In this document: positions 58,701 through 62,646 of the stretch, one piece after another
How positions within the stretch are numbered: the stretch's first letter is position 1
Layout: each line of letters opens with the position of its first letter
DNA from: Octopus vulgaris
Taxonomy: Eukaryota
Assembly: GCA_951406725.2 (NCBI GenBank)
Contig: OX597831.1
Location: 56,358,001 to 56,422,000, forward strand
Direction: 5' to 3'
DNA: 64,000 nt
Made by a program: the position numbers and the translations under genes
Notes under the pieces: model-generated
Databases searched by the model: none
The model's input: the letters and a program-made list of their open reading frames with translations, nothing else
Told to the model about the DNA's origin: nothing

Positions 58701-61700
58701 ATACCCCTCAACTGATGGGGCAGGGGCAGTAGTACTGAGGAAAACAGCTTTGCGCCAAGAGATGAGAGGTTATAGTATGATAAGGGGACAGAAACAGGTG
58801 TCTTGCTGTAGAGGAGATATATAGCTAACCCTATGCTGAACCAAATGAGATGTGAACTGTATATTCTATGAGTCACAAAGGACTGCCATGAAATATATAT
58901 TATATGAACTATAGTATGATACCATGAAATGTATATTTTATAAGTTACAGAAGGATGCTGTGAAACTTGCTGTTAGAATTAAAGTGAGAAATCATGAGAA
59001 CCATAAAATGTGTGCTGTACCAACCCCAGTAAGCTATTGTGAAATGTTTATTCTAACACTTGTTACTAAGTAAAGTAAAATGTATGGAAAGCTGCAAAAA
59101 GCAACAAGATTACATACCTGGTGATACCTAGATAGGCCACTTCTGTCTGGTTGTAATTATTTACCAAAGACAATCCTAATCCAAATATAAACAAGTTGAT
59201 TTCTTGTTCAATTCGCTCAAGTTCACCAGCCTGCAGATTAGATACAGAATTAGAATAACATTTTATACAATCTTGTCTTTAAGAAGTTTTTAGTGTCTAG
59301 AAAAAAAGCTTAAAAAATCTGTTTACCTGTTGAGCAATGGTAACCAGAGCTAAATCTTGACTGAATAATAATACACGTTGCATTCCATCCAAGAAAGATA
59401 CCCAATACACTTTGGTATCATTGTCTGCAAAGAATTCTCCAATTCCATCCTGAAATTAGAAATAGAATTGATTATAATATCTCATAGCATAATAAATGGA
59501 GTGGCTGTGTGGTAAGTAGCTTGCTTACCAACCACATGGTTCCGGGTTCAGTCCCACTGCGTGGCACCTTGGGCAAGTGTCTTCTACTATAGCCTCAGGC
59601 CGACCAAAGCCTTGTGAGTGGATTTGGTAGATGGCAACTGAAAGAAGCCTGTCGTATATATGTATATATATGTGTGTATGTATATGTTTGTGCGTCTGTG
59701 TTTGTCCCCCCAACATTGCTTGACAACAGATGATGGTGTGTTTACGTCCCCTGAAACTTATCGGTTTGGCAAAAGAGACCGATAGAATAAGTACTAGGAT
59801 TACAAAGTATAAGTTCTGGGTCGATTTGCTCGACTAAAGGCGCTGCTCCAGTATGGCTGCAGTCAAATGACTGAAACAAGTAAAAGAGTAAAAGAGTATA
59901 TGTCCAGAAAAATACAACTGTTGCTGCTGTTGTTATAATTCTTAATGCAAAGATTGAAGTTCGGTCTTTTTTTAGAGATATGGAAATCATGTTCCCAGCT
60001 CCCAGTTCACAAACCAAGACACATTTAATATAGGGATATATTATAGAGGGGTGTTACAGTTGATTAGCCCCAGGTTAAATTTGATTGGTTATATTTTTCA
60101 TCTAGCCAGATGGTTCTCAACCATTTTTTACCTATGGACCCCTTTGTTTACTATTTTATTCTGGTGGACCCTAATAGCCAATTGATGCTTAAAAACTAAT
60201 ATTATGGGTACATATTTCAAAATTCGTATTTTGTTATTCATTCATTTGCTTGTATAGGCTGAATTATATAAAATGCTAGAGAAACAAATCAAGCTGTTTC
60301 TTGCAGTACATATATTTAAAGCAAAACTTTTTATGGACTCTTATAATACTACTGTGGATCCCCAATTTGCTATTTTGCTAGCTTAGACCCCAAAAATCTT
60401 ATATGAACCCCTGTTGAGAACCACTACTCTAGCTGATAAAAGGCACATGAAAACAGCTATGAATTGGGTATCATATGTTGGCAGGTATTAAAAGGGTAGG
60501 TTGAAGATCACATGGTGGTGGACATTTTAAGATAACCTTGAAAACAGTTAATGTTATGTGGAATGGATATGCAAGAGTAGCAGCCAACTGAACCCTGTGG
60601 AGGAAGCTTGCTGTATAATGTAGGACAACCTAAAGCTTAAGAGATTTGACAGAGTAGATCTATGATCAAAGGCTTCCAGCTGTGATCACCTGCTTTGTTT
60701 TTGAAGACAGTGTAATGAGGACTACATCAGTTAATGAGCATTTCCTTTATTAATGATGATAGGATCTTATTTGAGGGAAATTTGACTGTTATCTCTTGCA
60801 GGTTAAGTGATCCCACAGATACTCCGTTGTTGGTTTTTTATAGTTGTACTTTTATGATCAAAGGTATTTTATTTATTCCAACTACTTAAAATATTTTTGA
60901 AGACATTGTGTCTAGAACTACATTATTCATATGTCTCCTTCTTGTATTTACCCCTTTAGCATTTAAACCAGCCATATCCAGCCAAAATATACCTGTTTTA
61001 TGCTCAAACTGAGCAAATCTGGTTTTTCCTACCTTACTCTACAATGTCATTTTAAAACTAAACAATCACATCATTGAAATCTTGAAGCTACGTAATATTG
61101 TATGAATAATTCAAAACAACATGAATAAATAAGCATTGCATTTGACAGATTAATCTGAATGCTAAAGAGTTAAGAGGGTGTGATTTGAGAGAGATTTAGT
61201 TGCTATTTCTAGCAGGTTAAAACGATCTTGCAGAGGCTCACTTGCTGGTCCATTTAAGGTGGAATGAGAACCTATGATGGCTTACTTGATAAAAATTGAG
61301 CAAGTAGTCAATGTATTGGCAGTTCATATTATGTCACCAGTGATGTCCCCAAAGTCCATCCCCTCCTCACCATGGTGGGGACGTTGGCAACGGGTAGTGT
61401 CAGAGCTATGCCGTCGGGAACTTCGGTTCCTGGTAGGGCCACCCAAGGCGGATTGGTCTGACACCGAGTGGTATTAGGGCCAAAACCCAGCAGATGGGGC
61501 TCTGGTGAAAATCCTCGGAGTGTCTACTTCGGCAACTGGCGGCTCCCCAGTCGTTCTGCCCCTGCGTCTGCAGACAATCTATGGCAAACAGGGTGTCTCT
61601 ACATGCGGGATTATTGGGGACCGCTTGTCAAATCCACATATTCCCACGAAACTTCTTCCATGAATTCTCAATGGCGAATACAATGCCTCGAGGGTGGTGG

Positions 61701-62646: not shown

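Follow-up and report, generated by a model that had tools for sequence, protein, structure and literature searches.

The ribozyme-headed, internally deleted LINE is an arrangement already known from the R2 SIDEs, from NARTc and, for the RTE clade, from Kojima 2018. The R2 SIDEs of Drosophila combine a 5′ ribozyme with the parent's 3′ end and are moved in trans by target-primed reverse transcription; they are described as specific for rDNA and rare (PMC3414825). The NARTc/NARTco, RIME and SIDER elements of the trypanosomatid L1Tc/ingi group are short, internally deleted and headed by the Pr77 HDV-like ribozyme (PMC3185411, PMC4035085). NARTco and TvSIDER1 are reported to cleave, and TvSIDER1 and L1Tco to be highly active (PMC4035085). 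The bipartite, ORF-less RTESINE1/2, MAR4_MD, WALLSI3 and Bov-A join the two ends of an RTE LINE and have no Pol III head. Kojima 2018 (PMC5786205) ties such elements to predicted 5′ ribozymes of RTE families and leaves unexplained the observation that the ribozyme-bearing RTE, ingi and R2 are among the few clades yielding two-part elements. Perere-3, an autonomous RTE element of Schistosoma mansoni, has a single endonuclease and reverse transcriptase (RT) ORF, 3′ GTAA repeats, and a duplication that abuts the cut site of its ribozyme, a Twister variant (PMC8501958). The drz-Agam-2-type ribozymes place an HDV-like fold at the RTE 5′ end (Ruminski 2011, as described in citing papers and PMC4908430).

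Here we analyze an insert in a 64,000-nucleotide stretch of Octopus vulgaris DNA (the window). An earlier note had read this insert as a promoterless RTE derivative whose 5′ end coincides with a predicted HDV-like cleavage site.

Results

The insert consists of the two ends of a longer LINE

Comparison with copies in its own genome gave the following layout.

61335..61342, plus strand: 5′ target-site duplication, 8 bp, exact
61343..61754, plus strand: whole two-part element, 412 bp (family A, 412-nt deletion class)
61500..61685, plus strand: rest of the parent 5′ UTR and first ORF codons; probable start ATG at 61671-73
61683..61685, plus strand: deletion junction, a 3-nt microhomology between the parent 5′ and 3′ parts
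61686..61754, plus strand: parent 3′ end, with the last codons, stop at 61727-29, 9-nt spacer, and CAAGTA/GTAA tail at 61739-54
61755..61762, plus strand: 3′ target-site duplication

As described in the earlier note, the insert is GC-rich (GC 0.58 at 61400-61599, versus about 0.3 to 0.45 nearby) and ends in a CAAGTA-like repeat tail. The target-site duplication is also present, but its exact length is 8 bp. The 11-bp version proposed earlier overlaps the first 3 bases of the element and the G that had been taken as +1. The element is multicopy in its own genome (2.8 Gb, 227 contigs searched). There were 1719 first-look candidates, and the 40 of these that were scored are 90 to 100% identical to the insert. 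The mean divergence from the consensus is 4.4% among the 30 best copies, an estimate biased low. None of the joints listed in an empty-site search spans the element. It has no tRNA, 5S, or 7SL head of the kind found in a Pol III SINE, and a tRNA search of the element found none. The A and B boxes are missing, as had been claimed: the strict B box pattern is absent with 0 or 1 mismatch, and the A box is absent from the first 160 nt. A second, very high-copy repeat lies just 5′ of the element (window 60930-61250), and contig depth there is far above that of the flanks.

The parent was found by walking upstream from a longer sister class that reaches the C terminus of a LINE reading frame. Five parent copies of 3.0 to 3.4 kb have both ends in common with the insert. 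In five family-A copies, element bases 1-343 and bases 341-412 are each 87 to 93% identical to full-length copies. These end matches and the common junction support the earlier view of a nonautonomous, two-part derivative of RTE type: the insert is the 5′ and 3′ ends of a longer LINE from the same genome, with no ORF of its own.

The parent copies encode an endonuclease-RT reading frame that is broken in every copy examined, the longest open stretch being 448 aa. The nearest intact relative is an endonuclease-RT protein of 1035 aa, 66% identical over the RT part, and the nearest named matches are tapeworm proteins. No RNase H family domain was matched in protein P0001. The architecture is that of RTE elements, with a single endonuclease-RT ORF of about 1000 aa, no ORF1, a short 3′ UTR, and a tandem repeat tail. 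The single ORF, the 9-nt spacer between the stop codon and the tail, and the GTAA type of that tail, which is like that of Perere-3, point to the RTE clade. The parent likely belongs to this clade, an assignment that is based on architecture and neighbors and not on a tree with named references. We also observed a young LINE family (L222-L232, e.g., G000:C10:8408805) whose frames stay open for about 1095 aa; its 5′ head is of another kind and matched neither the ribozyme class described here nor Rfam (L222 scanned). Three copies (L065, L088, and L089) carry an inversion of the 5′ part with respect to the 3′ part, resembling twin priming.

The 5′ edge of most families coincides with the first base of a predicted helix

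Searches with parent DNA and protein yielded four further families (B to E, 25 to 30 loci each) whose 5′ ends are related. Family A starts GCGTCCCC, 2 nt 5′ of 61345. The cleavage site had been placed at 61345; the family edge and the first base of P1 are both at 61343. Of 26 family-A loci selected on their internal sequence, 6 lacked the head or were truncated; G stands at +1 in 18 of the remaining 20 copies, and the best base at -1 is found in 12. Conservation at +1 is 22/30 in family B and 15/23 in family E; in family D it is 12/23, rising to 20/23 by base 3. Conservation thus sets in at P1 base 1 in families A, B, D, and E, and the edge is blurred in family C (7/16 at +1).

The tail was located in 56 of 77 distinct family-A copies. 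Thirty of the 56 have an exact duplication of at least 7 bp (7 to 23 bp) and 26 do not. The exact duplications end 0 to 2 nt from base 1 in 19 copies and elsewhere in the other 11. T stands at -1 in 37 of 51 family-A copies. G occupies -1 in only 7 of 86 copies of families A, B, D, and E, which is no excess because the flanks are 16 to 23% G. A capped template leaves an extra G, and an untemplated A may be added during copying. The absence of a G excess and the T at -1 fit an uncapped template with untemplated A addition, with the proviso that family A's own first base is G.

Two kinds of rearranged head were observed among related copies. In a family-C subgroup (L278:1720-1910, minus strand; L204, L279-L282, L284, and L291), a foreign head of about 190 nt is joined at L3, and the P1 5′ strand is lost. 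The foreign head, which can form a hairpin-loop pseudoknot, is similar to the 5′ terminus of a different LINE family (L233 and L234). This looks like 5′ switching, in which one head was replaced by another. In L010, L013, and L050 (also in L071 and L169), the first 185 nt or so are tandemly duplicated, and three copies have the same junction after a T run. These copies represent a dimer subfamily or else result from repeated template jumping.

The families probably carry an HDV-like ribozyme

The proposed fold is laid out in the window copy as follows.

61343..61350, plus strand: P1 5′ strand, with the predicted cut 5′ of 61343; family GCGUCCCC, window copy AUGUCCCC, pairing retained
61356-58 with 61503-05, plus strand: possible distal extension of P2 (CCA with UGG), identified by eye
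61360..61363, plus strand: P2 5′ strand, four C
61364..61376, plus strand: P3 (2 bp and U.U) around the 7-nt L3 at 61367-73; position 61372, a conserved G of L3, is A here
61377..61386, plus strand: P1 3′ strand (61377-84) and P1.1 3′ strand UG (61385-86, pairing with L3 CA)
61391..61489, plus strand: large branched P4 domain with a 5-bp base (61391-95/61485-89), inner helices, and a UUCG hairpin
61490..61499, plus strand: J4/2 GCAGA with the putative catalytic C61491 (C149), one unpaired base, and the P2 3′ strand (61496-99)

This layout keeps part of the fold drawn in the earlier note. The P1 partners were right, but the helix starts at 61343 and not at 61345. The GUGUCAGA/UCUGACAC helix and the GGAAC-UUCG-GUUCC hairpin are present. 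The former P2 depends on T61495, and the former P4 on T61384 and A61483. All three bases are private to the window copy; the family has cytosine at each position, as do nearly all contigs of four sequencing runs. Over 19 copies from four families, these two helices pair in 55% and 62% of cells, respectively, and both had to be abandoned. The family L3 is read as UCACC(G)U (7 nt) instead of UCCUCACC, and J4/2, previously thought longer than canonical, has a normal length in the revised fold.

One layout fits the consensuses of all five families. P1 has standard pairs at 34 of 37 positions (8/8, 7/7, 6/7, 7/7, and 6/8 by family, the two mismatches of family E included). Its sequence differs between the five families, so the anticipated covariation of P1 is found; the linker 3′ of P1 is nearly invariant. 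Between families A and B, both sides have changed at three of seven pairs, and A is one base longer per strand. Compensatory changes are also found in the revised P2 and P4, whereas the helices first proposed under these names rest on the private changes. The P4 base changes from U-A to C-G between A and B, and P2 changes from CCCC/GGGG to CCGU/ACGG in family E. P2 is 4 bp in families A, B, C, and E, with one or two unpaired bases at the junction (two in E); in family D, it requires a bulge and there are paired insertions. The full 3-bp P3 (ACC/GGU) is present only in family D and fixes the P3 assignment; the other four families have 2 bp and an outer U.U.

In HDV-like ribozymes, P1 is 6 to 8 bp long and starts at the cut, P3 closes an L3 of 7 to 8 nt that has a U and a G five apart, P1.1 has 1 to 2 bp, P2 stacks directly on P3, and the catalytic C lies in a C-H-R-A motif 5′ of P2. 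In these families L3 is UCAnnGY, with the U and the G five apart in all five consensuses. P1.1 forms in all five families between the U that follows P1 and the L3 A, and in four families the next G pairs with the L3 C. J4/2 is GCHRA, and C-H-R-A occurs in every consensus (GCAGA, GCCAA, or GCUAA). The putative catalytic C is retained in 45 of 49 family-A copies. In families A to D, P4 forms a branched domain of 100 nt, and in family E a short hairpin, with the same type of J4/2 on the 3′ side of both. We rejected a minimal ribozyme in which the GGCAA directly 3′ of P1 would serve as J4/2, since families B, C, and D lack that C. A distal P2 (AGUCC/GGGCU) is a conceivable misfold, but it could not stack on P3.

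We scored the structure on a MAFFT alignment of 19 copies from families A to D, in which C and D are partly misregistered. The proposed structure pairs in 86% of cells, compared with 41 to 47% when it is slid along the alignment. The revised helices pair in 83 to 97% of cells, and the P4 base, where MAFFT misregisters C and D, in 64%. Two of five whole-structure measures were not above shuffles (424/500 and 500/500), and the five families amount to few independent events. A fold descriptor, composed after the sequences were seen, matches four of the five consensuses with P1 at base 1 and misses family D. It matches at any position in 3 to 5 of 1000 shuffles and in none of 1000 when P1 is required at base 1; it also matches nine other places on both window strands. 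An Rfam scan (E up to 10 or 5) gave no ribozyme match and only microsatellite-driven, miRNA-type noise. Nested folding energy was uninformative, not being above chance (z of -0.94 and -0.93). Nested folding of the consensus and of the window copy prefers a rival hairpin between the P2 5′ strand and the P1 3′ strand. The fold departs from the canonical HDV/CPEB3 core, in which a G.U or G-C pair at +1 goes with a CC/GG P1.1: +1 is C in families B, D, and E and probably in C, P1.1 is CA/UG, and no Rfam model matches. Taken as sequence evidence, these data suggest that an HDV-like ribozyme, with predicted self-cleavage, is probably present at the family 5′ end.

The window copy is decayed and lies antisense in a VPS13-like gene

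The window copy retains P1, P3, P1.1, P2, and C61491. However, it has lost the L3 G (61372), and A61489 breaks the P4 closing pair. All core features, by our criteria, are kept in 17 of 49 family-A copies. C-to-A and G-to-A substitutions in L3 are found in an R2 ribozyme reported to be inactive (PMC3774820). The window copy probably no longer cuts itself, as had been suspected.

54300..59453, minus strand: VPS13-like host gene, five spliced exons (contigs of four runs); the element is inside the gene span, antisense

Contigs of the four runs, taken as RNA, join these exons over CT..AC gaps; the contigs give neither starts nor strand. One exon matches VPS13C residues 3035-3074 (E = 3e-8). One contig carries about 7.5 kb more sequence on the upstream side. 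This exceeds the room before 61343, and therefore the element lies inside the minus-strand gene, in an intron. Because the element is antisense to it, the host transcript cannot release the window copy. Among 17 window ORFs searched with Pfam, the sole matches were transposase pieces; the host exons went unrecognized. Broken transposase pieces (PF13843) lie at window 50109-50950 on the plus strand.

The two-part form was amplified, and its junctions are diverse

The junction of the window copy has at least 31 exact matches in the genome, and a reversed control has none. At 4.4% divergence, this number suggests by extrapolation that the 412-nt class has about 100 copies. The class spread as a unit, flanked by target duplications and ending in the tail of the parent. 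It mostly has G where the parent copies read A, immediately 5′ of the 3′ GAAGAAG. Among 30 loci chosen by a 5′ 42-mer, 28 are two-part and none is full length. These 28 family-A copies fall into at least eight junction classes, with 5′ breakpoints within about 20 nt. In family C, nearly all junctions are distinct.

61652..61660, plus strand: possible end-joining helix, 5′ arm; pairs over 9 bp with 61698-61706

An end-joining helix of 7 to 9 bp can be drawn in families A and B, with C-G in the 412-nt class where family B has U-A. Both arms are retained in 27 of 28 family-A junctions. This retention is not specific, because the 5′ arm directly precedes the start codon and keeping the whole UTR would give the same pattern. 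The helix is imperfect in family C, where several junctions lack the 5′ arm, and it was sought in family E and is absent. Being of low complexity and confounded with the start codon, it is a lead only.

Discussion

We consider it likely that the insert is a decayed, protein-free element made from the two ends of a probable RTE-clade LINE, whose RNA is predicted to free its 5′ end by an L1Tc-type HDV-like ribozyme and then to be copied back by the parent protein. The two-part origin, the common junction, the duplications, the covarying P1, and the start of P1 at the family 5′ edge are observed. Pol II would transcribe a source copy, probably reading through from a start outside it, and the first 160 nt or so would fold cotranscriptionally. 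C149 (C61491) would catalyze the cut at +1. The uncapped RNA would be bound via its 3′ end by the parent endonuclease-RT in trans and inserted by target-primed reverse transcription.

The missing A and B boxes exclude Pol III alone and are still compatible with a Pol II promoter in the element. Such an internal promoter, starting at base 1, would also give a sharp 5′ end, and the pseudoknot would then be a protective or translation-initiating fold that does not cut, or cuts only secondarily. The 77-nt head of L1Tc is both promoter and ribozyme (PMC3185411), several adequate-looking trypanosome SIDER folds are described as inactive (PMC4035085), P2 and P3 are weak here, and we found no structural reason for the linker 3′ of P1 to be kept in all five families. 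However, the edge tracks the P1 base while P1 changes in length and sequence, every consensus has C at the catalytic position, and the cap-type extra G is absent, which makes this explanation unlikely. A promoter could coexist with cleavage, as in L1Tc.

That the fold is an accidental reading of a GC-rich, structured 5′ UTR might be argued from the folding z of only -0.9, the lack of an Rfam match, and the post hoc descriptor with its nine other window matches. The compensatory changes in P1, P2, and P4 between families, the rarity of the descriptor in shuffles, above all at base 1, and the motif identity with active trypanosome ribozymes make it extremely improbable. It is also very unlikely that every short copy arose anew, by an RT jump into the 5′ leader from a point close to the 3′ end of full-length RNA, without the 412-nt form ever having replicated as a unit. 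The heterogeneous junctions and the clustered family-A 5′ breakpoints would suit recurrent jumping, but the identical junction in at least 31 copies and the G of the 412-nt class in place of the parental A argue against it. Recurrent birth and later amplification can both be true.

It is possible, though we regard it as doubtful, that these LINEs are built to spawn miniatures when RT jumps across a short helix that brings the end of the leader and the final 50 RNA bases together. The leader's L1Tc-type ribozyme would make each product potentially self-releasing, and the ingi-type core would be a widespread animal HDV form missed by standard models. With five related families, natural compensatory changes, near-consensus copies, and many independent junctions, both the ribozyme and the end-joining idea are cheaply testable. 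The findings also suggest that a trypanosome-type core exists in animals and escapes Rfam.

A literature search found no paper on this fold in octopus; these families may have been annotated earlier, Ruminski 2011 and Repbase being outside its scope. The likeness to the drz-Agam-2-type ribozymes is one of description and not of core sequence, and an A-U P1.1 in RTE may already be shown there. The octopus element resembles Perere-3 in its parent's single ORF, its GTAA repeats, and the duplication abutting the predicted cut; it differs in being nonautonomous and in the class of its predicted ribozyme (PMC8501958). It has the composition of the bipartite RTE elements of Kojima 2018 and adds a fold backed by covariation over five families, the available parts of that source giving no fold (PMC5786205). 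Like the R2 SIDEs, it joins a putative 5′ ribozyme to the parent's 3′ end; unlike them, as they are described, its family is genome-wide, with hundreds of copies and many deletion classes (PMC3414825).

By eye, the core matches the active trypanosome L1Tco/SIDER ribozymes rather than HDV. Features in common with the L1Tc/ingi ribozymes, as reported, are a Watson-Crick pair at +1, a 7-nt L3 of the UCAnnGU form, an A-U P1.1, and a GCUAA-type J4/2 (PMC4035085). The L3 of families C and D is that of TvSIDER1, the P3 of family D is that of L1Tco, and the GCUAA of families C, D, and E is the same (PMC4035085). In contrast to the trypanosomatid ribozymes, P3 is mostly 2 bp and U.U, P1 is 8 long in two families, four families have a second, C-G pair in P1.1, and P4 is branched and about 100 nt long. 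The elements also belong to another LINE clade and another kingdom. By analogy, we suggest that the octopus element probably works like NARTc and the R2 SIDEs, as a two-part element of RTE type headed by a candidate HDV-like ribozyme.
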